Of a DNA stretch of 64,000 bases, positions 9,594 through 37,184 are shown piece by piece. Under the pieces are notes generated by a model, which was not told where the DNA came from, did no database searches, and saw only the letters and a program-made list of their open reading frames with translations. Both the position numbers and the translations under genes were made by a program. The stretch covers positions 549,455 to 613,454 of the forward strand of contig JBKAGE010000034.1 in assembly GCA_046290225.1 (NCBI GenBank), written 5' to 3'. The stretch is from Bradymonadia bacterium (GTDB lineage Bacteria; Myxococcota_A; Bradymonadia; UBA7976; UBA1532). Numbering within the stretch: the stretch's first letter is position 1; every line of letters starts with the position of its first letter.

Positions 9594-12575
9594 ATGCGTC
9601 GATGGCGGATCTCTGCAGCGGCCCTCGCCGCCCTCGCCCTTGCGGCGTGTGATTCTGAAGATGCCACCGAAGGCGGCGAAGGCGGCAGCGGCGGTCGGGT
9701 GATGCTCGACGGTGGCGCTGGTGCCGGAGGCGCTGGTGGCATGGCCGGCGCCGGTGGCGGTGTTGCTGGTGCCGGCGGCGGCGTCGCTGGCGCAGGTGGC
9801 GCTGGCGGTGTCGCAGGTGCCGGTGGCATGGGCGGCGAGCCTGGCGGCGCTGGTGGTATGGGGGGTGAGCCCGGCGGTGCTGGTGGCATGGGTGGTGATC
9901 CTGGCGGTGCCGGCGGTATGGGTGGCGATCCAGGTGGTGCCGGCGGCATGGGTGGCGACCCCGGTGGCGCAGGTGGCATGGGTGGTGATCCTGGCGGTGC
10001 CGGTGGCATGGGCGGCGAAGGCGGCATGATGATGCCCCCGGACTGCATGCAGGCCTGCGCAGGTGCAGTGGAGTGCCTCACCGGTGGTGAAGAGCCTCTC
10101 TGCCCCCAGCTGAGCGCGGACGTGCCAGAAGATCCGCCGATCATCGAGGCGGCCTGTCAGGCAGCCTGCGAGGCGCAGCCCGATCTCTTCGCCGATGCCG
10201 CTGAGCAGACCTGTGTCGACTTGCTCGTAGACATCCTCACCGGCGAGCCCGAGTTCGGCGCCGCCTGTGCCCCCGGCCTCTTCGAGGCCTGCCCCGAAGA
10301 GGTGGCCGACTTCCAAGGTGAGCCCCTCGAAGGGGGTGGCTTCCGCCTCACCGGCGACAGCACCGAGCTGCCTGCGGGCCAGCAGGGCTCCTGCGGCGGC
10401 GCGGGCTCGGAGGCGGTCTACCGCTTCACCGCCCCCGAGGCGGGCCTGTGGCAGTTCTCCACAGTGGATGCCGAGACGCTCTTCGACACCGTGCTGCACG
10501 CACGCGCTCAGTGTGAGGCCCTCATCTCCGAGGTGGCCTGCAACGACGACTCAGGTGGCCTGCAGAGCACCATCCGCCTGCGCCTCGCTGCCGATGAGTC
10601 CATCTTCTTGTTCGTCGACGCCTTTGCAGAAGAGTCCGGCGGCGCATTTGCCCTCACCGCGGTGCCCATCCCCGAGCCCGGCATCGGCGAGCCGTGTGAT
10701 CCTGACGGGATCGCGAACATCTGCGCCGAAGGCACCTTCTGTCTACAGGCTGACCCTGAAGCGGATGCCGGTGTCTGCGCCATGGCTGAGGCCCCTGTCC
10801 TCGCCTCTGGCGTGGTCAGCATCGTCGAGAGCACCTTGCGCTTCCGCCTCGACGGTACGGACGCCAACGGCGACGTGAACACCGTGGGCATTCAGCTCCT
10901 CGACGCCGAGGGTGCTCCCCTGAACCTGCTCCCCGAAGAAGAAGAGCCACTGTTCGAGGGCTTCCTCGACTCGGGCATCTTCGGCGAGGTGGACTTCTCT
11001 CTTCGCCTGGCGGTGGAGTTGGAGCCTGCGGTGCTCGAGGCTGCGGCGAGCGCACGCTTCCGCGTGCTCGATCAGCAGGGCCTCAGCAGCGAGCCTCTCG
11101 ATCTCGAATTCAGCCCCCGCCCTGAGGCGGGCCTCGGCGAAGACTGTGACGCCACCGAGGTGGACAACATCTGCGCCGAAGGCACCTTCTGCTTCACCCC
11201 CATCGGTGAAGACGGTGAGGTCCCCACGGATGGTCAGTGCACCGAGGCCACGCCGCCCACGCTGAACACCCTGGAGGCCTTCTCCAACGACGACACCCTG
11301 GTGCTCATCGCCGAAGGGACCGATGCCAGCCGTGACGTGATCGGCGTGCGCATCACTCTGATCGACGGTGAAGGGGCCGTCATTCAGTTCCCTGATCCCG
11401 ATACGGGCGAGTTGACGGACGCCACCTTTGAGTTCGGGCCCGAGGAGCCGGTATACGGCGAAGAGAACGTGCGCATCGTGCTCTCCGTGGGCGGCCTCTC
11501 CAACTTCCCCGACACGGCCTCGATCCGTGGTGCCCTCCTCGACAGCGCGGGCCTCGCGAGCGATCCGGTCGACGCCGTCCTGATGGCTCTGCCCGTGGTG
11601 GCGGATGGCGAGCCCTGTGATCCCGAAGGGATCCTGAACACCTGCGACTTCCAGCGTCAGTGCGAGGTGCCCGAGGGCGCCGAGCAGGCGATCTGTGTGG
11701 CTCCGGTGCTGCCCGAGCTGGTGATGGGCGAGGCCTTCTTCAACCCCGACACGGGGGCTCTGGGCCTTCGCATGACGGCGACGGCCGAGACCACGCTCTT
11801 CGGCTTCGAGTACAACCTGCTCGATGGCGCCGGCGAGGTGATCCCGGTGAACGGCAACGCCGAGCCTCTGTTCGCCTTCGGCTTCGACAGCCTGGATCAG
11901 CCGATGGAGAACGGGCCCTACCTGGCATCGTCGATCCGCCTCCTCCCTGCAGGCCTTCAGGGTGTAGCGGCGGTGCGCATTTCGCTCATCGACGACGACA
12001 ACCTTCAGAGCGTGCCTGCTGATCTCCCCACGGCTCTGCCCCCCGAGCTGATGAGTGGCGCGGTCTGTGATCCGCTCGGCGCCTTCGATCGCTGCCCTGG
12101 CGAGGAGCTGTGCGTCGACGGCGAGCCTGCGCCCACGTGTCAGGTGGCCCAGTCGGTCTGCCCCGCGGAGTGGGAGGTGGTCGATCTCAACGGCCTGCGC
12201 AACAACGACGTCTGGATTGCCAACGGCGACACCGCTGGTGGTATGTCACTGACGCAGGGCACCTGTGGCGGCGGCTCTGCCCAGGGCATCTACGCCTTCA
12301 CCGCACCTGAGGCGGGCCTCTACCGCTTCGAGACGGACAGCGTCGAGGCCAACGCAGACACAGTGATTTACGTACGCTCGCTCTGCGGCATCGAGTCCCC
12401 CGAAGCAGAGCTGGCCTGCAACGACGACGACGAGGGCCGCAATCTGCTCAGCGCCGTGGAGATCAACCTCGAGGCGAACCAGGAGGTCTTCGTCTTCGTG
12501 GATGGTTACTTCGATGCCCTCTTCGGTGATGGCTGGCAAGGCGCGTACATCCTCACGGTCTCCCGCCCCGAGTAA
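9594..12575 (+). CDS. Large Cys-rich acidic lipoprotein with Gly-rich tether and PPC-like beta modules
   Basis: SD GAGGAGG; signal peptide with lipobox LAAC; GGAGGMGGDP repeats; two DTV..R..C...E.ACNDD modules; four GxxCD..C Cys knots. Confidence 0.85.
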   Translation: MRRWRISAAALAALALAACDSEDATEGGEGGSGGRVMLDGGAGAGGAGGMAGAGGGVAGAGGGVAGAGGAGGVAGAGGMGGEPGGAGGMGGEPGGAGGMGGDPGGAGGMGGDPGGAGGMGGDPGGAGGMGGDPGGAGGMGGEGGMMMPPDCMQACAGAVECLTGGEEPLCPQLSADVPEDPPIIEAACQAACEAQPDLFADAAEQTCVDLLVDILTGEPEFGAACAPGLFEACPEEVADFQGEPLEGGGFRLTGDSTELPAGQQGSCGGAGSEAVYRFTAPEAGLWQFSTVDAETLFDTVLHARAQCEALISEVACNDDSGGLQSTIRLRLAADESIFLFVDAFAEESGGAFALTAVPIPEPGIGEPCDPDGIANICAEGTFCLQADPEADAGVCAMAEAPVLASGVVSIVESTLRFRLDGTDANGDVNTVGIQLLDAEGAPLNLLPEEEEPLFEGFLDSGIFGEVDFSLRLAVELEPAVLEAAASARFRVLDQQGLSSEPLDLEFSPRPEAGLGEDCDATEVDNICAEGTFCFTPIGEDGEVPTDGQCTEATPPTLNTLEAFSNDDTLVLIAEGTDASRDVIGVRITLIDGEGAVIQFPDPDTGELTDATFEFGPEEPVYGEENVRIVLSVGGLSNFPDTASIRGALLDSAGLASDPVDAVLMALPVVADGEPCDPEGILNTCDFQRQCEVPEGAEQAICVAPVLPELVMGEAFFNPDTGALGLRMTATAETTLFGFEYNLLDGAGEVIPVNGNAEPLFAFGFDSLDQPMENGPYLASSIRLLPAGLQGVAAVRISLIDDDNLQSVPADLPTALPPELMSGAVCDPLGAFDRCPGEELCVDGEPAPTCQVAQSVCPAEWEVVDLNGLRNNDVWIANGDTAGGMSLTQGTCGGGSAQGIYAFTAPEAGLYRFETDSVEANADTVIYVRSLCGIESPEAELACNDDDEGRNLLSAVEINLEANQEVFVFVDGYFDALFGDGWQGAYILTVSRPE
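9816..10025 (+). repeat. 30-bp coding tandem repeat (~7 units, GGAGGMGG[D/E]P)
   Basis: Directly visible, with synonymous variation between units. Confidence 0.9.
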
Positions 12576-12603
12576 GGCGAACGGCCGTGAGCGAATGGCC
12601 ATG

Positions 12604-12729
12604 AGCGGACGGCCGTGCTTGCGCACCGCCTGTAGCGGACGGTCATCGCCTGACGGCGACAGCCTGTAGCGGACGCCTGCTTCGCAGAGCTGTAGCGGAC
12701 GGCGCTGACGCGCCTGTAGCTAAAGAGAG
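12604..12729 (+). repeat. Modular GTAG-type REP-like element, copy A
   Basis: CTGTAGCGGACG at 12630, 12664, 12690, partial at 12604, terminal CTGTAGCT at 12714; spacers are hairpins. Confidence 0.9.
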
Positions 12730-12815
12730 GCTTCAGGACTCTCCCCACCCCACCTCTCTCCCTCATCCCAAAGAGCCTACAAAGCCATAACCCACCTATG
12801 CCCGTGCCCCGCGTA

Positions 12816-13050
12816 GGCGCGGAGGTGGCAGCAGTCGTCGTGAGGTCGGTGAGGTCTCGTTCAGATGCGGGCTTTCACCCGCAGGGGTAGCAGCGCTACC
12901 CCGAGGACGGAAAGGTCGCAGCTGGGCGGGAGATCGCCGACCTCACGACGGCTGACGCCACCGCAGCGCCGGAGCAAAAGGAAAGGTCGCAGCTGAGCGG
13001 GAGATCGCCGGAGCAGAGAGCGGCTGACGCCGCCGGAGCGCCGGAGCAAG
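12816..13050. repeat. Second intergenic repeat family: ~65-70 bp unit, one inverted and two tandem copies
   Basis: GGAAAGGTCGCAGCTG.GCGGGAGATCGCCG...CGGCTGACGCC.CCG.AGCGCCGGAGCAA at ~12909 and ~12980; degenerate reverse complement at ~12816-12876. Confidence 0.8.
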
Positions 13051-13052
13051 GC

Positions 13053-16000
13053 TTAGTCCCCCTCAGGCTGGCCATCATCGGGGCCTGGCTCGAAGACATC
13101 AGCACAGAACTCGGGGTTCGGGTAGGGCGGGTTGATGTCGCGGAAGGCCGGCACCAGGCACTCGTTGTAGCTCCAGATCGCCGTACAGCGGGTCGAGCGT
13201 GCTTGGAACAGTTCCAAAGCCCCCACCACGTCGTCGCGCTCGTTGAGCAGGCGTAAGCCGCTCTCTCGGAGCACCTTCACCTGAAGCGTCACCGGGTTGT
13301 TGGGACCACAGATGAACTCCAGACGCATCTCCGAGAGGCCCGTACGGAACCGCACCGCCTCAGCGAGACAGGCTTGCCAGTTGCGTACATAGACCCCTTC
13401 AGTGTTCGCGCCATAGAGGCTCGAAGAGAGGTCCATCAGATCGAGGACCAGCTCCAGAGCGTCGCGATCACCGATGCACAGCTCGTCTTCACACTCCACC
13501 CCCACCGGCACGGCGAGGCGTGTCTGGATGTCTCTCAGAGTCACCAGGGCATCGATCACGCTCTCCCGGCCCGGGCCGGTGAGATCGAGCTCTGCATAGG
13601 CCTGAAGCTCGAGGCCGAGGCCTGCGATGGCCTGGTTCAAATCATCATTCACCGGCTGAGTGGCCAGGGAGCGATCCACCAGGTCCTCGATGTCGGGGAT
13701 GGCGAAGTTGTTGTACGACCGCTGACGGCACGCATCAGCAGCATCGTGCATGTAGAACCAGGCTTCGTTGAGCGACTGCCACAAATCGTTGGCGGCAAAG
13801 GCCTGAATCCCACCGGAGACCCAGCCCTCGAAGTCGGGATCTTCGAACATCGCCCGGCCCGCATCCAGGAAGTCCCGAGCGCGCCCCACCGACGGGTGCT
13901 CGAGATCTACCACCGGATCACCCACTGGGGGCTCCACCATGATCAGCCACTGCTCGTCCAGAGCCCGCATGTGCTGGCGCATGAGGATCCACAAGGTGTC
14001 GTCCAGGCGGGCGCCGAGGCCTTGCGCGCTCACCATCAAGTTGATCATGACGCGCGTCGCCACCAGCGTATTGCCTCGGCGGAGGTTCGATTCGCCCCAG
14101 AGGCCCAGCTCGATCCAGGGCTCGAGGTTGCCGAGCACCGAGGCCACCAGGGGGCCGTCGTCGAGGGCCCCAGCCCGCTCACCCACGAGCTGCAGCGTCT
14201 CGCTCATGCTGATGGGCCGCACCAGAATATCCTGGGTCTGCACCACCACCGAGTCGGTGTCACCCACCGTCACGGTGACGGTGTACACACCCGTGTCACG
14301 CCAGCTGTGCTGAACCTCGTTCAAGTCTTCACCCGAAATGGGATCCGAGCCGTCGCCGAAGTCCCAGGTGATGCTCTGGAGCGGATCCCCTTCCTCCCCG
14401 GCTTCTGCCTCGATGGAGAAGGTCCACATGGCGGCCTCGTAGATGTCCTCCGGCACCTCGATGTCCGAGATGATCGGGATGGCGTCGCGGATCTCCACCG
14501 GCACCAGCTGTGTCGTGGCCCCATCCTCGTCTCGAACCGTGAGCACCACCGTGTAGACACCATTCTGGGCGTAGGTGTGAACGGGCTGAGTCAGGTTGGC
14601 ACCACTCACCTCGGGGGAGCCGTCGCCAAAGTCCCAGATATACTCGGTGATGAGATCCGCCTGAGATCCTGGGCGGGTGGCCCGAGCGTCGAACTCGATG
14701 GGACGCCCCTGCAGGCCCGAGTACGGACCCCCAGGGCTCACGATGGGCGCCACCTCGCGCACTGAGACGTTCACGGGACCTGTGGCGCTCGTACCGAAGC
14801 TGTCAGTGACGCGGAGGCTGCCCGTGTACTCACCAGAGTCGAGGGGCACGAAGGCCACCTCTTCACCCACCAGCTCGTACACCCCGTCCAGGTTCATGTC
14901 CCACTCGAAGAAGACCACCTGATCTTCCAGCTCTGGCGGCTCGGAGCCCGAGCCGATGAGCGTGATCGGGCGACCCTCGGCGCCGACATAGGGACCACCG
15001 GCCACCACGATGGGCGGGTTGTTCACGCGGAAGTTACGCTGTTGGGTGTATCGGTCACCGTGGCAATTGAACAGGCTCAGCTCGAACCGGTACTGCCCGG
15101 GCAGAGCCAACGCCGAGCCTTGAGCGTAGACGAGGTTGAGGGCACCCACCTGCACGCTGGCCGACTGACCAGCGACACAAGCTGCCGGAGCCTCGACATC
15201 CCAGCTGAACGACGCCTCAGGGACCACATCACCGTTCTCAGGGCCTTCCAAACTGAAGGGCACCTCTTCCGCCATGAGCCAGTTGCGGGTCAGGCTGCTC
15301 TCGTTGCCGCAAGCATCCACCGCGGTGATCTGGAGCGTGCGCAGACAGGCATCTTCGCTGATCTCCTGGGTGATACGCGGCGCAGGATCGACGACGTCGA
15401 CGGCAAGCACCGAGGCCTCGGGCACTCGGCCGGGCTCGAAACATGCCCCTTCAACCAACAATGGGTTGACGCCGATCACCGGCGCCGTACGGTCGAAGGC
15501 CACCAGACCACCTGGGGTGATGTCTGCGCTCTCACCCTCATCGTTCGTCGCCGTAATCACCACCGTGCGGCTGCCCTCGACAGCCTGAGCAGCGTTGATG
15601 GGGATCTCGACCTCGAGGGCACTGCCGTCTTCGGGCAACACCACGTTGGCGGCGCCGACGATCAGGCCATCCACCTTGGCGAGCACACCCACGGCCCCAC
15701 CACCCTGCTGGCGCAGAGAGACCCGGAAAGGTCCGGGCGCCACGCCCACACAATCTCCACCGCGAGGCCAGAGCAGCTCGCCAGCGGGGGGCAGCTTGAG
15801 GCGTACGCGTACCTCGGCCTCAGCAGAGGCCGACCACTCGCCAAAGACGTCACGCCCTCTCACCCGCACCACCTGGGTGGTCCCGGTACGCCAGTCGGGC
15901 GATCGATAGTTGCGAATGATCTCACCGACGTAGTCGCTGCCATTGAGCTCCCCGGCGCCGTTGATGTCATCGGCGCCATAGAGGCCATCGTTGTCGGTGT

Positions 16001-19000
16001 CCCATGCGTAGGCGATGATGTTGTCGCACGGGGCATTAGGATCGAACGATGCCCGAGCGTCGAGATCGACGCTGGCGAAGACTCCACGCACTCGGGCGGT
16101 GACATAGGGGCCACCGGCATCCGCCACGGGCCGCACATTGGCGATGTCCACCCCCACGGTCACCTGGTCAGTGCTCGAACGACCCTGGGCGTCCACCACC
16201 CTCAGGGTGGCCGTCACCTGACTCTGAGCGATGATCGGGTGGGAGATCTCGGCGCCGCTCCGCTCAAAGGTGCCGTCGCCGTCCATATCCCAGAGGTACT
16301 CGACGATTTCGAAGTCATCGTCGCCTGCAGGGGCGTCGACGATGCTGTTGGTCCCGCTGAAGCGCACCTGCTCGTTGCAGCCTGCCGAGGCCTGAGAGGC
16401 TTGAGCCACTGCCACGGGGGGACCAGAGATCCAGAGACGGGTGGTGTCCGTGGCCACCCGGCCGAAGCGATCCTCCACCGCCAGGGTGATGTTGTACTGA
16501 CCCGGCGCGTCGAGACCCGCCTGAGAGAGCATCGCCGGCGAGATCAGGGGGTAGGCGCCATTCACATCGAAGGTGCCGTCACCGTCCAGATCCCAGCGAT
16601 AGCCCACGATGGTGTCGTCGCAATCAGCATCGGGATCCCGGCTGCGACGGCCATCGACCCGCACGCTGTCGCCGAGGGCGATGGTGTAGGGCCCCGAAGC
16701 ATCGGCCTGAGGCGAGCGGTTACCCTCGGTCACGTCAACGGTGAAGGGCATCGTCGCGCTGTGGCCTTGAGAGTCCTCTACGCGCAGGCCCAGGGCGAGG
16801 GGGCCGTCGAAGGTGTAGGCCCCAAAGCGGGAGGTCACCCGCTCACCCACGGCATCATCGTATTCGCCGTCTCCGTCGAGATCCCAGGTCCAGGACACCA
16901 CATCGACTTCGGGGTGAGGCTGAGTGGAGCCACTGGCGTCGAAGGAGACCAGCCCCTCGCATTCGGCAGGGTTCGGGCCCACGACAGCCACCGCCACAGG
17001 ATCAGGCAGGTGCAATGTGGCCTCGGTCTCCGCGGTGTTCGTGCGACCCGTGAGATCTTCCACCTCGAGGGTGACACGATAGGTGCCCGGCTCGATCCAG
17101 CCTGCGTCGGCCATGGCCTCCACCGAGACATCGACCACAGCCTCCTCACCATCGCCGTCATCGTCCTCCACCACGATGTCCCATACACCGTCATCGTTGA
17201 GGTCCCAACGGTAGAACCGGATGAAGTCGGCGGGATCAGGATCGAAGGAGGCCGAGGCGTCGAGCTCTGTCGCTTCCCCGACGAAGAGGTGGTAGCCACC
17301 ACCGCTGCCGTTGATCGGGCCGCCGACGTTGGGACCCCCCACGCGCTCGTCGGGGTGCGCCACCGCAGTAGGCGGCGTGAGATCGGGCAGGCCGATGAGC
17401 ACCTGCTCGCGAATGCTGTTGCTGCGACCTTCGGCGTCTCGAACTCTGAGCCGCACAAAGACCAGAGGGGGCTGATCCGGCAGTGGGGCGAAGACGCGGA
17501 CCAGCTCGGTCGTGGGGCTGTCCTGAGTCTCGAAGACCCCGTCATCGTTGAGGTCCCAGTCGAACTCGACGATCTCCAGGCCCGGCACCGGCGAATAGCT
17601 CGCCCGGGCGTCCAGGGTGATCCGGCTCTCGTTGTTGAGCGGGTTGATCGTGCCCGGATCAGGCGACTGGAACATCAGCGGCACTGGCCGGGTCTGATAA
17701 ATGCGGATGCCGGCCTGGGTGACATGGCTCGCCCCCTGGCTGTCGGTCACCCGCAGAGCGATCAAGTTGGTGGGATCACCCGTCTCGCGATCAGCGGGCC
17801 AGCTCATCTCGCTCAGCACCGCCCAGGGCAAGGTGATGCGCTGCCCGCGCAGATCGCCGGCGTCGTCGAAGCTGCCGTTGTTGTCGATGTCCCACGCGTA
17901 CTCCACGATGCTGTCACCACATCGGAAGTCAGGATCAGACGAGGGCGAGCCGTCCACGAGGAGCGACGAGCCGTCAGTCACCGTGTAGATCGCCTGAGTG
18001 GTGGCCGCCGTGGGCGAACGGTTGCCCTCCGTCACCGCCACATTGAAGTTGGTGGTGTGCGTGCGGCCGCGATCGTCGGTCACCGTGAGGCTGGCGGGGA
18101 ACGTCGAGAACCGATTGTAGGTGTAGCTGAAGTCGGAGTTGCCACCCACGCCCTCGAAGCCCGGATCAGGGTGCACATCCCAGGCGTATCGCACGATGCG
18201 GCGCTCGGGGTTGGGGTGGCTGCTGTCGTCCCCGTTGAAACGTACGGGCTGCAGGCAGGCAGCAGGCTGAGGGTTCACCCGAGGCACCGCGATGGGATCA
18301 CGGGGGTAGATGGTGAGGGTGCCCTGAGCCACCGCCACTCGATCCGTGCCGTCCACCACCCGCAAGCGAATGGTGTGCTCTACGCCCAGAGGCAGAGTAC
18401 TCAGGCGATCCCAGGGCACCTGCGGGTTCAGGCCATTGGCGTCGTCGTACTGGCCGTCGTTGTCGAGATCCCAGGTGGCGGTAAGCGTGTCGCCACAGTT
18501 CAGGTTGGCATCCTCGGCGCTGCCCTGAAGCGAGAGAGAGGCGGTGGCCTCCATGGTGTATGGCCCGCCGGCGAGGGCAGAGGGCGCCGCCGCCGGGGAT
18601 CGGAGCACGTTCACCGTGGTGGTGGTCTGCTCAGAAGACACCCCGTCGGGATCATCATCCAAAACCCTCAACGTCACCGTGTAGATGCCCGCCCGATCGT
18701 AGGTGTGGTTGATGAGCGTGGAGCCGTTGTTCGTTTGATGATCGACTGGGGCGCCAGTCTCCCACCAGAGGCCATCGCTGGCGTCCACATCCCATTGGAA
18801 CGTGGCGATCTGCCGGTCACGGTTGGGATGGAACGACTGTCGATGATCCAGAGCCACCTGACCGGCCCCGCCGCCGCGACACCCCTCAACGACTTCATTG
18901 GGCTGCACCGCCGCCAGAGGTACGGGCTTGGGCTTGAACAGGGTCGGGGTGATCGTGAGCCCGGCCCAGCCCGTCGTGAGGGTGGGTTGAGCATAATCGA

Positions 19001-20819
19001 TGGTCACCGACCGGTTGGTGGACCAGGTGTCCCTGATGATGCCGAAGTTCTCGTAATCGTTCAGGTGACGGGACTGAGCACGGTTGTAGTAGGTGTTGAA
19101 CTCGGTGACCCAGTCGTGGCCCCCCATGTCGAGGAGCTCGGGGCTCCCCGTCCGGTAGCCCTTTTGATGAGAATACATCGCGTAGGTGTAGCCACAGGTG
19201 GGGGCGTTGTAGACCCCCACAGGCGTACCGCACAGATAGTCGCCCAGCTGAAAAAGCCCTGCCGTCCAGTGAATGCCTTGCAGGTTCGGCGTGGACCAGT
19301 GGCGGCTCGTGTACGACACATAACGGTTGTACATGTCGACCAGCTGGGTCTGGGTCAGGGTCGAATAGGGCGCGAAGGGCTGGGTGTTGTTGCGCTCCAT
19401 GTTGTGGATGCCCAGCCAGCGTGCACCGACGAAGGCCCCACCGGTCAGGTGGAAGTCGTGCCGACTGCTGTTCTTGTGGCTCGTGCGATAGCTCGAAGCA
19501 CCATGAATGCTCTGGTTCTCGTAGAGGTTGGTGGCGATGCGGTACTTGTGGCGGTTGTTGACGATGACCCCATAGGGTCCGCCAGCCACCTCGGCACTCT
19601 CGAGGCCGATGTAGGCCCACTGCGCCGTCGACGCATCCATACGATCGCATGTGGTGGGCGTCTGGTTGTTGCCGTAGAGCCAACCACCATAGGAGCAGCC
19701 CCCGTCGTGCTGGATGTAGCCGAGGTAGTCCACGATCTCCTGGACGTACTTCTCATAGGGCTGAGTGCGGATGGTGTTGTTGGCGTTGCCCACCTGCACA
19801 GGGGTCCCTGCGAGGCTGGGCAGCACGGTGGCGATGGACCCGAGGCCCAAGCCCACCATATAGGTGCCGCTGTTGTTTCCGATCCAGGCGCCGCCATTGT
19901 TGTTGGTGTTGGTGATGCGGTTGCAGCGACGCTCGCTGCCATCGGGGTTCCAGCCACAGGTGTTGTCTTCGTCACCTGAGCCGGCGATGGAGCCGCTGGT
20001 CCAGAGATAGGCCCCATCACCCACCTGGATCGAGAAGTTCAACCCTCGGGCGATGGTCTCTGCGTACGGATCGTCGTGCCAGCGCGTGTCATTGGCTTCG
20101 TGCCACCCTTCAGGTAAAGCCCGCCCAAAGGTGTTGATGCCCCCTGGTGGATAAGCAGGCTGGCGGCCGTTGGCGGTCATGGCCCAGACCATGGCCATGT
20201 TCGCCGCCGCCTGATACGTACCACCCCTGCTGTGGGGCAGCGCCGCGGTGATTGCGCCTCCGCTGCCGGCGTATTGCCCCATGTGCCGATGCAACCACCA
20301 GAGCGTCTCGTGCACGGTCAGGGTGGTCATGATGTCGAGCTGATCACGGGTCCACTTCGTCGGATCAGACGAAGGGGTCCAGTCATAGACGAACATGCGG
20401 AAGGTGCCGAAGGTCTCCTCAGCAGGATTGCAACGGCTCACCGCCCGCACATCGATGGTGATCGTCTTGCCGTTGTCGACCGTGGGCACCTCGTAGGTGC
20501 GACCGAGATCATAGATCGTGTTCGTGCCGGCCACAGGCACGACGTGGCGGCTGGTCTCGTCTCCGAAATTACGGTTTCGGTTGGTGTCCCAGGCCACATC
20601 GTACCCCGCGCCACAGGTGGCGTTGCGCATGATGGCCTTCAGAGTGATCCGGGCATACTCGTGCACCGGCCAGGGCAGCTCGAGATTGTTGGGCGCATAT
20701 GGGACAGGCAGGATCTCGGGCGCTTGCGCCTGGGCATCTTCCGCGGTCCACATCACCCCCACCATGGCGAGTAAGACCAGTAATCGGGACGGGCCAGTCC
20801 GCGAACACACCTTCTCCAT
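13053..20819 (-). CDS. Giant secreted PKD-repeat protein (paralog 1, ~2588 aa) with N-terminal prenyltransferase/cyclase-like helical domain
   Basis: ATG 20819 after SD GGAGGG; signal peptide ending AQA; many WDLDxDG/WDFGDG PKD units with AGGPY linkers; helical Cys-containing C-terminus. Confidence 0.88.
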   Translation of the reverse strand: MEKVCSRTGPSRLLVLLAMVGVMWTAEDAQAQAPEILPVPYAPNNLELPWPVHEYARITLKAIMRNATCGAGYDVAWDTNRNRNFGDETSRHVVPVAGTNTIYDLGRTYEVPTVDNGKTITIDVRAVSRCNPAEETFGTFRMFVYDWTPSSDPTKWTRDQLDIMTTLTVHETLWWLHRHMGQYAGSGGAITAALPHSRGGTYQAAANMAMVWAMTANGRQPAYPPGGINTFGRALPEGWHEANDTRWHDDPYAETIARGLNFSIQVGDGAYLWTSGSIAGSGDEDNTCGWNPDGSERRCNRITNTNNNGGAWIGNNSGTYMVGLGLGSIATVLPSLAGTPVQVGNANNTIRTQPYEKYVQEIVDYLGYIQHDGGCSYGGWLYGNNQTPTTCDRMDASTAQWAYIGLESAEVAGGPYGVIVNNRHKYRIATNLYENQSIHGASSYRTSHKNSSRHDFHLTGGAFVGARWLGIHNMERNNTQPFAPYSTLTQTQLVDMYNRYVSYTSRHWSTPNLQGIHWTAGLFQLGDYLCGTPVGVYNAPTCGYTYAMYSHQKGYRTGSPELLDMGGHDWVTEFNTYYNRAQSRHLNDYENFGIIRDTWSTNRSVTIDYAQPTLTTGWAGLTITPTLFKPKPVPLAAVQPNEVVEGCRGGGAGQVALDHRQSFHPNRDRQIATFQWDVDASDGLWWETGAPVDHQTNNGSTLINHTYDRAGIYTVTLRVLDDDPDGVSSEQTTTTVNVLRSPAAAPSALAGGPYTMEATASLSLQGSAEDANLNCGDTLTATWDLDNDGQYDDANGLNPQVPWDRLSTLPLGVEHTIRLRVVDGTDRVAVAQGTLTIYPRDPIAVPRVNPQPAACLQPVRFNGDDSSHPNPERRIVRYAWDVHPDPGFEGVGGNSDFSYTYNRFSTFPASLTVTDDRGRTHTTNFNVAVTEGNRSPTAATTQAIYTVTDGSSLLVDGSPSSDPDFRCGDSIVEYAWDIDNNGSFDDAGDLRGQRITLPWAVLSEMSWPADRETGDPTNLIALRVTDSQGASHVTQAGIRIYQTRPVPLMFQSPDPGTINPLNNESRITLDARASYSPVPGLEIVEFDWDLNDDGVFETQDSPTTELVRVFAPLPDQPPLVFVRLRVRDAEGRSNSIREQVLIGLPDLTPPTAVAHPDERVGGPNVGGPINGSGGGYHLFVGEATELDASASFDPDPADFIRFYRWDLNDDGVWDIVVEDDDGDGEEAVVDVSVEAMADAGWIEPGTYRVTLEVEDLTGRTNTAETEATLHLPDPVAVAVVGPNPAECEGLVSFDASGSTQPHPEVDVVSWTWDLDGDGEYDDAVGERVTSRFGAYTFDGPLALGLRVEDSQGHSATMPFTVDVTEGNRSPQADASGPYTIALGDSVRVDGRRSRDPDADCDDTIVGYRWDLDGDGTFDVNGAYPLISPAMLSQAGLDAPGQYNITLAVEDRFGRVATDTTRLWISGPPVAVAQASQASAGCNEQVRFSGTNSIVDAPAGDDDFEIVEYLWDMDGDGTFERSGAEISHPIIAQSQVTATLRVVDAQGRSSTDQVTVGVDIANVRPVADAGGPYVTARVRGVFASVDLDARASFDPNAPCDNIIAYAWDTDNDGLYGADDINGAGELNGSDYVGEIIRNYRSPDWRTGTTQVVRVRGRDVFGEWSASAEAEVRVRLKLPPAGELLWPRGGDCVGVAPGPFRVSLRQQGGGAVGVLAKVDGLIVGAANVVLPEDGSALEVEIPINAAQAVEGSRTVVITATNDEGESADITPGGLVAFDRTAPVIGVNPLLVEGACFEPGRVPEASVLAVDVVDPAPRITQEISEDACLRTLQITAVDACGNESSLTRNWLMAEEVPFSLEGPENGDVVPEASFSWDVEAPAACVAGQSASVQVGALNLVYAQGSALALPGQYRFELSLFNCHGDRYTQQRNFRVNNPPIVVAGGPYVGAEGRPITLIGSGSEPPELEDQVVFFEWDMNLDGVYELVGEEVAFVPLDSGEYTGSLRVTDSFGTSATGPVNVSVREVAPIVSPGGPYSGLQGRPIEFDARATRPGSQADLITEYIWDFGDGSPEVSGANLTQPVHTYAQNGVYTVVLTVRDEDGATTQLVPVEIRDAIPIISDIEVPEDIYEAAMWTFSIEAEAGEEGDPLQSITWDFGDGSDPISGEDLNEVQHSWRDTGVYTVTVTVGDTDSVVVQTQDILVRPISMSETLQLVGERAGALDDGPLVASVLGNLEPWIELGLWGESNLRRGNTLVATRVMINLMVSAQGLGARLDDTLWILMRQHMRALDEQWLIMVEPPVGDPVVDLEHPSVGRARDFLDAGRAMFEDPDFEGWVSGGIQAFAANDLWQSLNEAWFYMHDAADACRQRSYNNFAIPDIEDLVDRSLATQPVNDDLNQAIAGLGLELQAYAELDLTGPGRESVIDALVTLRDIQTRLAVPVGVECEDELCIGDRDALELVLDLMDLSSSLYGANTEGVYVRNWQACLAEAVRFRTGLSEMRLEFICGPNNPVTLQVKVLRESGLRLLNERDDVVGALELFQARSTRCTAIWSYNECLVPAFRDINPPYPNPEFCADVFEPGPDDGQPEGD

Positions 20820-21065
20820 GATCACCCTCCATCTCGGACAGCGAGACAGTCTGTGAAAATGGGCGCTGCGCACATGTCTGACGACATACACAACACACCC
20901 AGGATGATGATGGTCCCCCTCAGGGCCCAGGTGTGTCAACCATGGTGAAATGACGGCGAATGTAAGACTTTGAGATCAAAGGTAAGTCTAAGGAGGAGGG
21001 ACCCGCCTTCTCCGGCGGGTTTCAGGTCGGACAAAAAACCACAAACACATACCCATGTATGCGGG

Positions 21066-24000
21066 TCAGTCCCCTGGTGCTTGTCCGTCACCACCGGCCT
21101 GAGCGGCGGTGCCGTCGTCCTCACAGTACTCCGGGTTGGGGTAGCTGGCGTTGAGGTTCGGGAAGGCCGGTACCAGACAGCTGTTGTAAGCCCAGACTGC
21201 CAGGCAACGGGTCGAACGCGCCTGGAAGTAGTCCAGGGCAGCGACGACGTCGGACTCCTCGTCCACCAGGCGCAGGCCATTGGCCCGGGTCACACGAGCC
21301 CGGAGCGTCACGGGGCTGAAGGGTCCACAGACATACTCCAGGCGCATCTCCGACAAAGCGGTCCGGAACTTCACGCCTTCTACGAGGCAGGCCTGCCAGT
21401 TGCGCACATAGGCCCCTTCGTTCGCCGCAGCGGTCAACTCCGTCGACAAGTTCATCAGCTGCACCAGCAGTTCCAGAGCGTCGCGATCGCTGATGCAGTT
21501 GTTGTCCTCACACTCCAGGCCCACAGGAGTGGCCAACTGGGCTTGGATGGCCCGCAGATCCTGCAGCGCGTTGAGCACCTCTGCACGGCCAGGGGCGTCG
21601 AGGCCGAGCTCGGCGTATTGCTGCAGCTCCAAGGCCAGCAGCGCCACGGCCTCGTTGAGGTCCTCGTTGATGGCCTGCGCTGCGCTGGCCCGCTCGATGA
21701 GATCCCGAACGAAGGGGATCTCGAAGTTGTTGTACTTGGTGGCCTTGCAGGGGTGTGCGGCGTCTGCGAGGTAGAACCACGCCTCGTTGAGCGACAAGGA
21801 GATGTCGTTGGCCATGAAGGCCTGCAGCGGGTTCGACAATGTGGCCTCGATGTTGTCTCCCTTCATCATGTCCTCGGTGAGGCCCAGGTAGACATCGGCC
21901 TGCGCCACGCTGGGGTGGTCCGCAGGGAACTGGTCTGCATCGTCGCCCACGAGTCGGGCCCGCTCTGCCAGGACCTTGCGCTCCGCCTGACGCATGATCA
22001 GGTAGAGCGTGTCGTCGAGTTCGGCGCCGAGTGCCATGGCGTTCACCAGGATCGAGACAATCTGCTTCACGGCGAGCATCGTGTTGCCGCCCTTGCCGTT
22101 GGCCTCGCCCCACATGGCCATATCCATCCAGGGCTCGATGGCCTCGAGGGCCTGGGCCACCAGCGGACCGTCGTCGTTGGCCTCCAGGCGAGCGTCTACC
22201 TCGGTGAGCAGCTCGGCCATGGTGGCCTCTCTCACCTGAACCTCAACGCTCTGAATGCCCACAGAGTCACCATCGCTCACAGTGACGGTGACCGTGTAGG
22301 TGCCTGCATCACGCCAGGCATGCTGCACCGAGGAGAGCTCTGCGCCGGTGACGGGCTCGGAGCCATCGCCGAAGTCCCAGGTGTAACTCTCAATCGGGTC
22401 GTCCACGCCGCCAGCGTTGGCCGTGATGCTGAAGGTCAGCGCGGTGATCTCGTAGGGATCCTCCGGGGCCTCGATGTCGGAGAGCTGAGGCAACGCGTCG
22501 AGCACGATGACCGGCACGATGACGCTGGTGCTGGTGTCTTCGTCGTGCACGGTGAGCCGTACGTTGTAGACGCCGTTCTGAGCGTAGGTGTGCCGGGGCT
22601 GGGTCAAGGTGTTGCCCGAGAGGGTGGTCCCATCGCCAAAGTCCCAATCGAAGCGCGTCAACAAGTCGGTGGGCGAGCCGGGTCGTGAGCCACGGGCATC
22701 GAACTCTACCACGTGGCCCTGAGGCACCTTGTAAGGACCACCAGCGTCGACGATGGGATCCACCTCGATGACGTCCACCACCACGGCGGCGGTGTCGCTG
22801 GCCCCGAAGCTGTCGGTGACCCGCAGACGGCCCGTGATCCGGCCGGCGTCGGAGGCCACGAAGTTGATGGTCTCACCGGCGAACTCATACTCACCGTCGC
22901 GATCCATGTCCCACTCGTAGAGGGCGATGAAGTCCTCCGCCTCCGGGGACTGGGACTGACCACCATTGAGCACGATGACCCGGCCCTCACTGCCCTGATA
23001 GCTGCCACCGGTCATGGCCACGGGGGGTGCGTTGATGCGGAAGGTCCGTTGACGGCCATAGGGCACCCCACGGCAGTCGCTCAACAACAGGTCGAACCGG
23101 TAGAGGCCGGCAGCCTGCACCCTGGCACCTTCGACATAGGGGAAGGCTGTCGCGCCATCGAGGTTCATGGTGGCCGACTCGCTGGCCACGCACTGGGCGG
23201 GCACGTCGAGCGACCATGTGTAGGTGGCGCTGGACACCACGTCACCGTTCGCAGGGCCGACGATCTCCGGCTCCGCCTGCTCGGCCATGAGCCAGCTCCG
23301 CTGAAGCGTGGAGCGGTTGCCACAGGCGTCAGTTGCAGCGATGTCGAGGGTCCGGATACAGGCCTCTGCGCTCACCCCCTGCTCCACTGCGGGGGCGGGG
23401 TCGAGGGCGTCGCTCACCTGAAGCTCGAGACCCGGAACCTGTCCCTCTGCGTAGCAGGCACCCTCGGTGAGGGCTGCGTTGATCGCGATGACGGGGCCGG
23501 TGCGGTCGAAGGCCACCTGACCACCGGAGTTGACCACGGACTCCTGGCCCTCGTCGTCGAGGAGGACCACGGTGACCGCCGCCATGCCCTCGGGGGCCAG
23601 AGTAGTGTCCACATCGATGTCGGCGCTCACGGCGCTGCCGTCCGCTGGGAGGTTCACGACCGTGCTGCCCACCTCGACGCCGCCGACCTTGGCGGTGAGG
23701 GTGACCTCACCCCCATCAGGCTGACGGACCGAGACCTGGAACGGATCAGCATCCTCGGGCACACAGTCGCCACCTCGGGGCCAGAGGATCTCGCCCAGTG
23801 GGGGCAGCTTGGACCGGACCCGGATCTCCGCCTCCGCTGGCTCGGACCAGAGGCCGAACACATCGAGGGCCTTGAGGCGTACCACCTGAGTGGTCCCCGT
23901 TCGCCAACCCGGGTTGATGTATCCCTGGACCTGAGCACCAACATAGTCGCTGCCTACGAGGGCGCCGGCGCCATCCACGTCGTCCGCGCCGTAGAGACCG

Positions 24001-27000
24001 TCGTTGTCAGTGTCCCACGCGTAGGTCTGGATGTGATCACAGGGGGCGTTGGGCTCCAGACTGCCACGGGCGTCGAGATCGACACCGGCGAAGGTGCCGT
24101 CCACCTGCGCGGTGATGTACGGCCCACCGGCATCAGCCACGGGGCGCACATTGGCCACGTTGACGGCCACAGTGACGGTGTCGGTGTCGGTCCTGCCGAG
24201 GGCGTCGATGACCATCAGCGTCGCGGTCACCGAGTCTTCGGCCACGACGGCGTCGAGCACGGTCTCGCCGCTGCGCTCGAAGATGCCGTCGCCGTCCATG
24301 TCCCATCGATACTCTTCAATGGCGAAGCGCCCATCACCTTCGGGCCCATCGTGCGTGCTGTTGGCGCCAGTGAAGGACACCTGCTCGTTGCACGACGCGC
24401 TGGCCTTGGAGGCCTGTGCCTGTGCAGTGGGGGTGCCCACCAGCCAGATCCGAGCCCGATCAGTGGCGGTGCGACCAAAGCGGTCCACCACCTCGAGGGT
24501 TACCTCGTACTCGCCCGGTGCCCCCATGCCAAAGCCAGCCAGCTGGGCCGCGCTCACGTTGAACTGAGCGCCCTGAACGTCAGAGCTGCCATCTCCATCG
24601 AGATCCCACTGATAGCGCAGGATGCTGTCGCCACAGCTGGCATCGGGATCCGCTGAGGCGGACCCGTCGAGGGCCACGCTGCCACCATAGGGCACGACAT
24701 ACTGACCCGCCTCGGGCACCGGAGCGCGGTTCCCCTCGCTCACCACCACGGTGGTCGTCGCCCGAGCGCGATGGCCGGCAGAGTCTTCCACCTCGACGCC
24801 CACCGTCAGGGGACCGCCGAAAGTGAACTGCCCAAAGCGGGTGGTAAGCACCTCGCCGACGCCATCGTCGTACACGCCGTCGCCATCGAGGTCCCAGCGC
24901 CAGCTCACCACGTCCACGTCGGGGTGGGCATGCTCGGCTTCACTGGCATCGAGGACCACCTGACCATTGCAGGCAGCAGGGCTGGGGTTCGCCGTCACCG
25001 ACACAGTGGGATCACGGGGATACACAGTGAGGGTGGTGGTGGACTGCGCCGTCTGCCCGGACTCGCTCTCCACCTCGAGGGTGAACTCGTAGTCGCCGGG
25101 CTTGTCGAGGCCGAGCTGCTCGGCGAGCGCCGCAGGGATCTTGAGCACCGCCTCGGCGCCGTCACCATCAGCATCTTCGGCGACAATGTCCCACTCGCCG
25201 TCACCATTGAGATCCCACCGGTAGTAGCGGATGCGATCCTCGGCATCAGGGTCGAAGGACTCCGAAGCGTCGAGCTCGATCTCCTCGATGCCCTCTTCGT
25301 GGTGCACGATGGTGCGCTGCGTCCGGGCGCCAGAGGCCGTCTCGACCTCCACGATGATCGAATGGCTCCCCTTCCGGTCCAGGCCGTAGAGGGCCTTGAT
25401 GTCGGGGGTCAGGGTCAGCTCACCCTCGGCGCCGTCGCCGTTCTCGTCAGCGCGCTCGATGTCCCACACACCATCCGCGTCGAGATCCCACCGGTAGAAG
25501 GCCGGGGGATCTTCAGCATCAGGGGGCACGATGTCACCGGTGTCCAGCTCCACTGACTCCCCTTCCGACTCCACGTGGTACAGCACAGTGCCGGTGCCGG
25601 TGGATCCGTTGGGGTAGACGATCTGAAGGCCGACTTCGTGACTGCCTGGCTTGTCGAGGCCGAACTCCACCACCTGCTCGGGGGTGAGCACGAGGGTGGC
25701 CTCAGCACCATCTCCGTTGTCGTCCCGCTGCTCCACGTCGTAGTCGCCGTCGCCGTCGAGATCCCACCGGTAGCGGGTCGAGGGGGCGGGGTTGTGGTCG
25801 ATGACGTCCCGAGAGTCGATCTGCATGCCGTCGTCGCCATCATCGACGTGCTGGGTGAAGCTGGAGTTGGTCTGCTGACCATCTGCATTCTCCACCTGCA
25901 CAGTGATGGTGTGGCTGCCCTCGGTGTCGAGGCCGTAGCGCTCAGCCTGCTCCGGCGTCAGGGCCAGGATCGCCTCGGCGCCGTCGCCGTCCTCGTCTAC
26001 CCGAACGATGTCCCACTCGCCGTCACCGTCGAGATCCCATCGGTAGATGGTGAGGGGGCCTGCGTCTTCGGGATCCACCACTGAGGGGGTGTCAATGACC
26101 ACGCCATTCTCTGGCGCGTCGACAGAGACCACCACCTTGCCCGTCGTCCTGTTGCCGGAAGCCGTCACCACCTCGATGGTGATCTCCTGCTCCCCGGTGT
26201 GGTCGAGGCCATACTCTCGGGCCATCTCATCGGTGATCTCCAACTCGGGATCGGCCTGCTCGACATCAAAGGTGCCGTCACCATCCAGGTCCCACCGGTA
26301 CAGCACCGGCGGATCTGCAGGGTTGCGATCCACCACGTCGTCGGCGTCGAGGTTCATCCCCTCTTCAGGATCCCCCACCCACTGCACATAGGTCACCGTC
26401 CGCTGCTGACCATCCGCGGTCTCGGTCTGCACGCTGATCTGATGGGCGCCGTTCTGATCGAGGCCGTACTGAGCTTGCTGATCCAAGGTGAGCACCAGGG
26501 TGGCCTCGGCGCCGTCGCCATCTTCGTCCACCTGCTCGACGTCGAACTCACCATCCCCATCGAGATCCCACCGATACACCGTGGGGGGATTCTCGGGATC
26601 GATCTCCACGACGGTCTCGGCATCGAGAGACAGGCTGGAGTCGGGGGCATCGACGACATGGGTGTACGTGGTGGTCTCGGTCTGACCGCGACCATTTTCC
26701 CGCTCCACAGTGATTTCGTGGGCACCGGGCTGGTCGAGGCCGTACTCTGCGGTCTGCTCCGGCGTGAGCTTGAGCTCCGACTCCACACCATCGCCGTTCT
26801 CGTCCACCTGCTCCACGTCGAACTCGCCGTCGCCGTCCAGATCCCAGCGATACACGGTGGCAGGGGCATCATTGTCAGGGGTGGCCACCTCGGTGACGTC
26901 CACAGAAACCCCACCGTCCTCTTCGGGGGCGCTGTGCACCACAGTGGCGCGGGTGGTCTCACCAGAGACCGTCTCCACCTCCACGATGATCTCGTGGGTG

Positions 27001-30000
27001 CCGTCCTGGTCGAGGCCATACTGAGCGGCCTGCTCCGGGGTCAGGTTCAGGACAGACTCGGCGCCGTCGCCGTTCTCGTCAGCCTGCTCGATGTCAAAGA
27101 CGCCGTCGCCGTCGAGATCCCAGCGATACACCGCCGGGGGATCTTCAGCGTCGCGCTCGATGATCTGGTCGATGTCCACCTGCACGCCGTCCTCGGCGTC
27201 GTCGATGATGTGGTGGTAGGTCGTCTCGGTAATGTGACCACGATCGGTCTCCACCTGAACGGTGATCTCATGGGCGCCAGGCTGGTCGAGACCATACTGA
27301 GCCCGCTGCTCGGGCGTCAGACTCAGCTCCGCCTCTGCGCCATCACCATCCTCGTCGATCTGCTCGATGTCCCATTCACCATCACCATCGAGGTCCCACC
27401 GATACACTCGAGGCTTGCCCGCTTCGTCTAGGGGGGCGTCGGCGTCGAGGGTCACCGTAGGATCACCACCACCGACGGCGTGGTAGCCGCTGGGATCATC
27501 CTCGCCGTTGTCTCGACCACCAACGTTGTCGCCTCCGACGGCCTCGTCGGGGTTGGCCACGGCGGTGGGGGGCGTCTCACCGGGGAGCGCCACCAGGAGC
27601 ATCTGCCGCGTGATGTTGGTCCGACCAGCGGCGTCGGTGACCCGCAGGCGGATATAGGGCTGAGGCGCCACGTCGGGCAAAGGCCAGAAGACCAGCTGAG
27701 CCTCGTGCACGGGCTGGTTCTGGATCTCGAAGGTGCCGTCGTCGTTGAGATCCCAGTCATAGCGCACAATGTCCACGCCGGGGATCGGCGAGTGGCTCGC
27801 CCGACCATCGAGGGTGAAGTTGCTCACGCCGTTGTCCGCGGCCATGGCCGCCACCGTCGGTGACTGGAAGACCACGGCCACAGGGCGGGTTTGATAGATG
27901 CTCACGCCACTGTGGGTGGTGTGGGTGAGGCCGAGACTGTCGGTGACCCGCAGGCTGATGGGGTTCACCGGCAGACCCGTGTTGCGATCCGCAGGCCAGT
28001 TCATCGTGGACAGCACAGCCCAGGGGATGACCGTCGTGGCCCCTCGGGCATCTACGGGATCGTTGAAGTTGCCGTTGCCGTTCACATCCCAGGCGTACTC
28101 CACGATGCTGTCACCGCAGTTGCCGTTGGGGTCGAACGACGCCCGACCATCGAGGGCCAGATCGTCACCGTCGGTGACGTGGTAGACCGGCTGAGAAGTG
28201 ATGGCCGTGGGGCGCTGGTTGCCCTCGCTCACCACCACCTCGAAGGACCTGATTCGGCTCCCGCCCACGTTGTCGGTGATCTTGAGCCGCCCCGGGTAGG
28301 TCCCGAAGGCCGTGTAGCTGTAGGCGCTCTCAGGCTGCTCGGTGACGATCTCGAAGGCGTCGTCTCCGGCCATGTCCCACGCATAGCTGACCACCCTACG
28401 GTTGGGGTTCTGGTGGTAGGAATCGCTGGCATCGAGACGAATGGTCTCCCGACACGCCGCGGGGTTGGGGTTGATCACCGCCCGGGCGATGGGGTGCTTG
28501 CGGTATTTGGTCATGGAAGAGATTGCGATGGTGCTGCGGCCCGTGCTGTCGGTCACCTTCAATCGGATGGTGACGCTCTCCTCCCAATCCATCACCTCCT
28601 CGTAGAGCGCGTGCGAGACGAGCGGGTTGAGCACGTCGGCGTCGTCGAACTCACCGTCGTCATCGAGATCCCAGGCATAGGTGAGGGTGTCCCCACAGCT
28701 CAGATTGGCGTCTGTGGCCGAGGCGCCGCTCAGCGTCACCTCGCCGTTGTTCTCTACCCAGTAGGGCCCGCCGGCGAGGGCACCTGGGGCCGACGGCGGC
28801 GCCGAATTCACCTGCACCGAGACCGTGGTGCTCTCGGTGAGAGGCTCACTGATGTCGTTGTCCACCACCCGCAGCGTTGCCTTGAAGATTCCAGGGCGCA
28901 TGTACCGATGGGTGAACACCACGCTCTTGTTGTTGCTCTCGAAATCCACGGGGGCCCCGGTCTCCCACCAGAGGCCATCGCTGTCGTCAACGTCCCACTG
29001 GAAGCGGGCGATCTCTGCCTGGCTGTTCGGGTGGAACGAAGCGCCATGATCAAACTGCACGAGGCCGTTGTTGCCTCCGGCGCAACCCTCGATCACCTCG
29101 TTGGGGCGCACCTCGGCGAGGGGCACAGGCTTGGGCTTGAAGATGCTCGGGGTCAACGTGAGGATCGCCCAGCCCGAGTTGAGGTTAGGCCCCACGCGGG
29201 CGCCCACGGAGTGACCGTACATGTGGCGATCCACGAAGCGGCCGAAGTCGGTGTAGTTGTTCAGGTGCATGCTCTGGGCACGCACGAAGTAAGTGCTGAA
29301 CTCCCTCACCCAGTCGTGGCCACCCACATCGAGCAGCTCGGGGGTGCCTGTACGGTAGCCCTTCTGGTGGGAATACATCGCATAGGTGTGGCCACAGTTC
29401 GGGGCGTTGTAGACCCCCTGCGGCGTGCCACACAGATGCTCACCGGTCTGCCAGAGGCCAGCGGCCCAGTGTACGCCCCGCATATTGGGCGTGTTCCAGT
29501 AGGTGGCGGTGTACTGCACAATCTGGTTGTACATATCCACCATCTCGCGCTGGGTGCGGTTGGTGTAGGGCGCAAAGGGTCGCTCGTCGTTGGGCTCCAT
29601 GTTGTGGAGCCCCGCCCAGCGCGCCGCCACGAAGGCCCCACCGGTCAGGTGAAAGTCGTGGCGGCTCGTCCAGCCGCGGTAGCTGGAGCGGTACATCGAC
29701 GCCCCGAAGGGGTTCTTGTTCTGAAACAAGTTCTCGATGATGCGGTACTTGTGACGGTTGTTGACGATGACCCCATAGGGTTTCCCAGCGACGTCGGCGC
29801 TCTCCAGGCCGATGTACGCCCACTGCGCCGTCGACGCGTCCATATGGCTACAGGGCCCATCGGCGTTGTTCCCCCGATCGCCGTACAGCCAGCCACCCAT
29901 GGCACAACCACGGTCGATCTGCATGTAGCCCAACCAGTCGACAGCCTCTTGGATGAATGCCTCCCAGAGACGACCTTTCATGGTGATGTCGGCGTTATAG

Positions 30001-36108: not shown

Positions 36109-36740
36109 TGACCCGCACAGAAGAATACACAGACAAGTACATCGCCATCGCCGGCAACATCGGCGCGGGCAAGACCACCCTCGTGGAGTTCTTGAAGTAC
36201 AGGTTCGGGCTCACCCCGTTCTACGAGCCCAACGCCGACAACCCCTTCCTGACCCCATTCTACGGGGACATGAAGCGGTGGGCGTTCCACAGCCAGATGT
36301 ACTTCCTCACCCACAAGTTCAGGCTGCACCAGACCCTCGCTGGCGAGCCCGGGGTGGTGGTACAGGACCGCACCATCTACGAAGATGCCGAGATCTTCGC
36401 AGAAAACCTCTACCGCACCGGCAAGATGACTGCGGACGAGTACAGCACGTATCGCACGCTGTACGAGGGCATCATCGAGACGCTCCGGCCCCCGGATCTG
36501 ATGATCTACCTGCAGGCCAGCGTCCGCACCGTGCGCCATCGGATCCGCAAGCGCGGACGCCCCGAGGAGCAGGATCTCCCTCTGAGCTACATCCGGCGCC
36601 TGCACAATCTCTATGAAGAGTGGTTCACCCACTACGACCGCTCGCCTACCCTCGTAATTCAGGTCGACCGCCTCGACTATATCCAGGACATGGTCGACCG
36701 CATCGAGATCATCAACATCATCGAGAGCCACTTGGATTGA
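36108..36740 (+). CDS. Deoxynucleoside kinase
   Basis: GNIGAGKTT, FYEP, DRTIYED, PDLMIYL, RIRKRGR; TGATG coupling to the upstream gene. Confidence 0.93.
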   Translation: MTRTEEYTDKYIAIAGNIGAGKTTLVEFLKYRFGLTPFYEPNADNPFLTPFYGDMKRWAFHSQMYFLTHKFRLHQTLAGEPGVVVQDRTIYEDAEIFAENLYRTGKMTADEYSTYRTLYEGIIETLRPPDLMIYLQASVRTVRHRIRKRGRPEEQDLPLSYIRRLHNLYEEWFTHYDRSPTLVIQVDRLDYIQDMVDRIEIINIIESHLD

Positions 36741-36895: not shown

Positions 36896-37001
36896 ATGGT
36901 GTTGCTGGTGGGTCTCTCAACCCAGGTAGGGGCTTACGCCGGAACTGGTCCGTCAGGGGCCAACAGCGTCTGCGGTAGATGAATCCACACACGCCCCCCT
37001 C

Positions 37002-37146: not shown

Positions 37147-37184
37147 TCAGGCACAAGCACGACCGTCCGCCCCCAACCCGAACA

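Follow-up and report, generated by a model that had tools for sequence, protein, structure and literature searches.

Fold-back elements with shuffled mini-hairpin cassettes in a Bradymonadia genome and their association with TIGR02436 genes

A fixed 12-mer recurs in a 64,000-nt window (the whole stretch of DNA that was analysed) from a Bradymonadia bacterium, and short self-complementary cassettes are set between its copies. The locus raises the question of what kind of element is built in this way, and how its parts come to be exchanged. The original prediction proposed an undescribed combinatorial family akin to REP or BIME, or a multi-hairpin non-coding RNA, with cassettes exchanged by recombination at the 12-mer. 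The window contained ten matches to the 12-mer (nine exact), against 0.34 expected, and ten were reached in none of 100 shuffles. The expectation that further copies and cassettes would exist elsewhere was borne out: the source genome (G000; 8.58 Mb in 83 contigs, 64.4% GC, completeness 99.4%) held 197 exact 12-mers, grouped into 76 arms at 45 loci, and 82 distinct cassette sequences. This fold-back family, built on the 12-mer as a fixed linker and on mini-hairpin cassettes, is termed F1.

Anatomy and insertion sites of F1

The F1 unit was arm-core-arm, about 400–410 bp in length, with the two arms facing inward. There were 31 inward pairs in G000, which took in 62 of the 76 arms. In 27 standard pairs, the innermost 12-mers were separated by 191–199 bp; one pair was separated by 357 bp because of a nested insertion, and three were collapsed, with 12–19 bp between the innermost 12-mers. 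The 14 unpaired arms comprised five collapsed singles, one hybrid and eight solo arms. Outer ends were sharp. Four cassettes per arm, originally taken to be invariable, were found in 45 of 62 complete arms; six arms had three, and 11 had five, the fifth being mostly decayed.

Within the window, all 12 cassette strings, their coordinates and the decayed 14-bp units had been read correctly at the outset. The division into three separate copies was not upheld. Copies B and C form an inward-facing arm pair around a core of about 125 bp and are therefore one element (36740–37146, with a further, decayed outer unit reaching ~37170), whereas copy A is a solo arm (Table 1). The original prediction overlooked that arms pair around a core, as well as the connection with four-helix-bundle gene cassettes described below. 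The first A of copy B is also the final base of the TGA stop codon of a deoxynucleoside kinase gene (36057–36740). Arm A had neither a partner arm nor a core downstream, and its innermost cassette was rare (3 of 62 arms). Some 40 bp behind it starts a repeat of about 200 bp from another family (~12767–12975), which has internal inverted and direct repeats, occurs at 52 loci in G000, and may have displaced the partner of arm A. Elsewhere in the window, two tandem giant PKD-repeat proteins of 2628 and 3321 aa were encoded on the minus strand at 13053–31031, and a palindromic, single-copy stretch ahead of a MerR gene (37180–37305) is probably the operator or promoter of that gene.

Table 1. Parts of F1 within the window
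Feature	Position	Strand	Remark
Two decayed 14-bp outer units before arm A	12576–12603	+	Directly after TAA of 993-aa ORF 9594–12575
Arm A, solo, four cassettes on three exact 12-mers	12604–12729	+	
Left arm (copy B)	36740–36887	+	
Core, ~125 bp	36888–37010	.	Common to 27 standard elements, homologous to F2 core
Right arm (copy C)	37011–37146	-	
Decayed fifth outer unit of arm C	37147–37170	-	End approximate

F1 was found at the 3' ends of genes. An ORF of at least 120 aa ended within 40 nt of the outer arm end for 57 of 76 arms, compared to 6.7% for random positions, and 19 of the 76 arm ends overlapped the stop codon. Long ORFs ended at both ends of 17 pairs, at one end of 13 and at neither end of one. 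There was no target duplication: the longest flanking direct repeat was 1–4 bp, with a mean of 2.45 against 2.73 for mismatched pairs (n = 31), nor was any inverted duplication of the flanks observed. One contig (depth 2.5) of a close relative carried a collapsed form of about 60 bp at the B plus C site, and this was the only allele from a relative obtained for F1. In 60 relatives, all from outside the genus, the 12-mer was at background level, and BLAST searches of 30 other genomes of the order returned no real match (one match of 28 bp, E = 0.008). Matches across GTDB (10), metagenomes (10) and viral contigs (24) were each inspected and none was F1, in scans from which the closest records to G000 may be missing.

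The core (about 125 bp) showed pairwise identities of 59–95% between copies, and it was mosaic, since 373 of 496 informative site pairs displayed all four gametes; this share was 58% within 20 nt and 74–90% beyond, and recurrent mutation can add to it. Several identities for the core were rejected. As a decayed four-helix-bundle gene it scored 4.5 bits at best, compared with 6.1 for reversed and 5.2 for shuffled sequence; as a structured RNA it gained no support from covariation, which was unconvincing (alifold z = -1.6, -2.9, -1.3 and +1.0); and no sigma-70 promoter site was found. A separate element of 162–176 bp with 14-bp inverted ends was observed in one F1 core and one F2 core (C78:372744–372905 and C34:360961–361136), apparently inserted at TA; its middle contains a 30-bp repeat that also occurs in about 25 further places in G000.

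Cassette exchange and hairpin loops

No two of the 62 complete arms had the same layout of cassettes. In the 24 elements whose arms could both be parsed, the sharing of cassettes bore no relation to how similar the cores were (Mantel r = 0.005, p = 0.46). As all layouts differed and layout was unrelated to core kinship, the cassettes are shuffled, and the combinatorial exchange originally proposed was thereby supported. Some pairs of slots were still associated, which implies that exchange was frequent but not free. Slot specificity held in part. Slot 3 had its own class, and slot 4, the innermost, was specific to the side of the element (34 arms of left type, 23 of right type and five others), but the two outer slots, 1 and 2, drew on a common pool.

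At each of the inner slots, identical cassettes faced each other in 2 of 26 pairs, fewer than the 12.0 and 7.3 expected, and this rarity may reflect descent. No such avoidance was seen at the outer slots, where the corresponding figures were 2 of 26 (4.1 expected) and 6 of 20 (3.6 expected). Copy C had been described as taking slots 1 and 4 from B, and slots 2 and 3 from A; this was correct overall, with slots 2 and 4 each one base off the sequences of A and B, respectively. Copy C carries a left-type innermost cassette, and B plus C is one of only 2 of 26 pairs whose arms agree in innermost class. Since B and C also share slot 1, copying between the arms of one element is suggested. Likewise, in a second family (F2), both the arms and their outer tails were more alike within one element than between elements.

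The hairpins themselves were consistent with folding of DNA. Among outer-class cassettes, the first and last bases covaried in all 93 counted (59 G-C and 34 A-T), with a C-C mismatch inside this end pair in 87 of 93. Each hairpin therefore begins at the linker edge, which gives four-way-junction geometry once the two arms pair through their linkers. On the CTAC strand, the complement of the one originally read, the 242 loops comprised 153 GNA, 29 GNRA, 9 GNYA, 34 AAA, 2 TNC and 15 others. Hence 191 of 242 loops, belonging to 61 of 82 distinct cassettes, were of the G(N)A or G(NN)A type, compared to 657 of 11706 background hairpins (5.6%), and all four bases occurred at the middle position of the GNA loops. 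The CTAC strand folded better in 72 of 82 distinct cassettes with DNA parameters, and in 57 of 82 with RNA parameters. Mini-hairpins of the sequences GCGNAGC and GCGNNAGC are described as extra-stable in DNA and far weaker as RNA, as being poorly bound by SSB, and as occurring in single-strand origins (PMC13037366). In minimum-energy folds of a whole element the linkers paired and clean junctions appeared at some slots only; a second element gave a mostly irregular duplex, and solo arm A folded no better than shuffled sequence (z = -0.7 and -0.4). Cassette stems covaried, but stem covariation cannot separate RNA from DNA. F1 likely folds as single-stranded DNA. What is new in F1 is the genome-wide shuffling of cassettes together with this DNA-loop polarity.

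Four-helix-bundle genes within fold-back arms

A scan of G000 for long inverted repeats detected three large families: F0 (52), F2 (42) and F1 (29 detected). The genome had two PF05635 genes, and both lay inside fold-back arms, one of F0 and one of F2. F2 had hairpin-mosaic arms of 185 bp with ragged outer tails, at C77:107004–107859 and about 40 other loci, and its usual core of 135 bp was homologous to the F1 core, a core common to no other family. Furthermore, one hybrid element consisted of an F1 arm, the core and an F2 arm. The F2 copy that held a TIGR02436 gene was without the core, and the gene was frameshifted. No gene was found inside the arms of any F1 copy in the 83 contigs of G000. 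PF05635 is reported to be homologous to Avd, the accessory protein of diversity-generating retroelements (DGR; PMC10053308), and the TIGR02436 family matched NF033474 weakly. Two convergent retron-type reverse transcriptases were also noted in G000 (C79:177700–181450; L082, L083); ahead of the first lies a long inverted repeat of the kind usual for msr-msd. A link to these was rejected, as only a collapsed F2 remnant lay between them, as it does between many convergent genes.

Similar arms surrounded these genes in other genomes. Inverted arms were present at 31 of 39 PF05635 loci, a sample that includes the two of G000 and some loci that are related or at contig ends, compared to 14 of 200 random flank pairs. 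In most cases these arms consisted of 6–8-mer repeats. F1 agrees with these loci in build: its inverted arms face inward, consist of short repeated units and are inserted where genes end. Analogous linker-plus-hairpin families were found in two other genomes of the class, G166 and G059. In G166, the arms at a PF05635 locus combined a constant 10-mer with variable hairpins, and the family comprised 61 matches. At the 25 loci inspected, inward pairs enclosed a core of about 95 bp, which did not match that of F1; inner cassettes were side-specific and outer ones shuffled. The loops had the F1 polarity in 54 of 86 cases (G(N)A or G(NN)A), with eight reversed. The gene-bearing copy begins on the clpP stop codon, and in five of five congeners the orthologous site was empty, the next gene following directly; one junction of this insertion was seen, the far end being unassembled. 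In G059, ten TIGR02436 genes were present and, by eye, five had linker-plus-hairpin arms on both sides, three had such arms on one side or in part, and two had simple repeats. Each of the five had a different linker. The linkers of the G166 and G059 families had no GTAG and were unrelated to the F1 linker. Across 16 of 18 loci, two G019 loci being excluded, loops read inward were of TNC type in 56 cases and GNA type in nine. A pattern for cassette pairs, a narrow probe that failed to match G000 itself, matched 5 of 113 genomes, and the G019 and G026 matches had a different architecture on inspection.

The same design rules (a fixed linker, stems starting at the linker edge, GNA loops in the 3' arm, and a side-specific inner cassette) recurred in three genomes on sequences unrelated to each other; this points to selection acting on DNA shape rather than on sequence.

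Two further observations were made at these loci. By eye, a conserved CAACG or GAACG followed after 16–17 nt by CGATAA or CGTA was seen ahead of TIGR02436 genes (L175, L178, L180, L182 and L184–L187 of G059, and L035), a motif that resembles an ECF-sigma promoter. At L134 and L163 (G166 and G059), inward-facing linker-hairpin arms enclosed ordinary host genes, named by eye as phosphopantetheinyl-transferase-like and dCTP-deaminase-like; these are possibly instances of capture, or of two solo arms.

Explanations for F1

F1 works like a MITE or a BIME but fails the tests that define either. Like bacterial MITEs, including the modular BOX (PMC3184786, PMC10969869), it is multicopy and about 400 bp long, with terminal inverted arms flanking a non-coding core in dozens of copies; unlike them, it has no target-site duplication, no matching IS, and arms that are not identical at the cassettes. 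With REP, BIME and REPIN sequences, as these are described with RAYT (PMC3733652, PMC6006769), it has in common many extragenic copies, inverted pairs, GTAG in the linker, mosaicism and the lack of a target duplication; unlike them, it has a fixed core and no RAYT. The ORF-bearing intervening sequences of 23S rRNA (S23p/PF05635/TIGR02436; Coxiella, PMC4990558) provide a long fold-back around a four-helix-bundle gene, as in F2, G166 and G059. F1 differs in its position at the 3' ends of protein genes rather than in rRNA (there was no rRNA match in the window, and F1 copies follow protein genes), in being mostly gene-less, and in its arms, which are shuffled ladders of linker and mini-hairpin with DNA-type loops. 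The GNA loop class is shared with single-strand priming signals and N4 promoters (G4 ori, ssiA; PMC13037366), but those are single origins or promoters, and F1 occupies dozens of sites in the chromosome with as many as ten hairpins in each element. No Rfam family matched F1, even at E = 1, in agreement with the original view that the element was uncatalogued; resemblances to tRNA, group II introns and IS200 ends were without Rfam support. No transposase gene was found between F1 arms, within 3–3.5 kb and among the IS families searched by profile, which were not all; the search of G000 for IS91 gave no match, with a control that was likewise silent everywhere. In the literature covered, outside which most subscription journals lie, no paper was found on such arms or on their tie to TIGR02436.

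The reading preferred here, with a probability of roughly 0.55, is that F1 is a non-coding fold-back of about 400 bp with shuffled cassettes, likely the gene-less form of TIGR02436 cassettes and likely folding as single-stranded DNA, in which exchange would proceed via the linker and spread would be aided in trans by the four-helix-bundle protein. The connection between F1 and TIGR02436 runs through F2, and the F1 copies are not independent events. Under this reading, one strand would be exposed, on the lagging-strand template or in a cruciform, and the 12-mers of both arms would pair as short helices. Facing cassettes would then bud out as hairpin pairs, so that a series of four-way junctions, and not a single long and perfect palindrome, would result. 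The mini-hairpins with GNA loops, which on either strand are always those of the 3' arm, would nucleate and protect this fold. Host cleavage and repair of hairpins, or template switching, could swap cassettes with the invariant linker as homology. Such swaps would run both between copies and between the two arms of one element, and the same process could collapse elements to 20–200 bp. New copies would enter the 3' ends of genes via a single-stranded intermediate, which the four-helix-bundle protein would probably handle in trans; its action on F1 arms is putative. Cutting and joining would fall to host enzymes, since none of the copies is accompanied by a nuclease or a transposase.

More tentatively, F1 might exemplify a wide class of transposase-free mobile DNA, in which a branched single-stranded ladder of exchangeable GNA mini-hairpins would be the substrate and an Avd-like protein the dedicated mobiliser, each protein having its own linker family and the gene-less copies being the equivalents of MITEs. 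If so, the orphan TIGR02436 family would gain a function as mobiliser, and arms of heptamer repeats and arms resembling hairpin combs would be two forms of one signal. Through F1, an abundant and unexplained repeat is connected with a family of orphan proteins that are homologues of DGR Avd, and the 62 natural arm variants, together with the protein-linker pairs of G059 and G166, make binding and mobility assays straightforward.

A second explanation, that F1 consists of self-propagating palindromes maintained by host repair alone, is on balance unlikely. Lagging-strand hairpins would be cut by an SbcCD-like enzyme and repaired from other copies, causing both spread and shuffling, and the four-helix-bundle gene would be a passenger that gains from the packaging and has no role in movement. 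In E. coli, the hairpins that interrupted palindromes form on the lagging strand are described as being cut and then mended by recombination, and perfect palindromes as lethal (PMC4245961). The collapsed F1 forms (three pairs and five singles) and the collapsed allele of the relative fit hairpin deletion, no mobilising enzyme was found in G000, and the resemblance between arms of the same F2 element is also expected. However, host repair accounts for conversion among existing copies and not for arrival at new, non-homologous sites. The excess of inverted arms around TIGR02436/PF05635 genes over random flanks and the separate linker family of each G059 gene suggest specific pairing, and also speak against host repair alone. 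If only host repair were at work, F1 would still represent long inverted repeats that are kept and reshuffled in a chromosome.

A role for F1 as RNA is improbable, and possible as a side effect. In its favour are the long ORFs that end at both ends or one end of nearly all F1 pairs; each arm also ends in a hairpin and a T-run, with two terminator-like sites against 0.4 expected, although their stems have only 5 bp. Precedents include the Coxiella intervening sequence with an S23p ORF, described as excised by RNase III (PMC4990558), and the related Gut-1 motif, proposed as RNA (PMC2864571); Gut-1 (RF01706) differs from F1 in sequence and phylum. Triloops with a free middle base fit the GNA loops of DNA, and not UUCG or GNRA, and the arm met first when reading the sense strand of the neighbouring gene folds less well than its partner. 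With the core also lacking convincing covariation, the multi-hairpin RNA of the original prediction is not favoured.

The other original proposal, an orphan REP/BIME family with its RAYT lost or unassembled, is mostly refuted and very improbable, despite the invariant GTAG and CT of the linker, the intergenic, head-to-head positions after stop codons, and four collapsed forms in which GTAG and a 6-bp hairpin with a 2-nt loop look much like a GTAG REP: neither Y1_Tnp (PF01797) nor REP_Tyr_transpos (NF047646) matched anything in G000, with positive controls and in a MAG, which can drop repeat-flanked genes; GTAG lies 6 nt from the hairpin in full arms, off its foot, and not 0–2 nt 5' of a hairpin of 7–20 bp, as the rule for GTAG/GTGG in REP is given (PMC6006769); it would be base-paired in the fold-back, the well-folding strand being the CTAC strand; and the analogous families are without GTAG, the single RAYT-like gene of G166 being flanked by repeats unlike the 10-mer family. 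A genuine-looking GTAG REP cluster was observed in a Lamprocystis MAG (L045:2400–2650), with a similar start and unrelated to F1 beyond the 12-mer.
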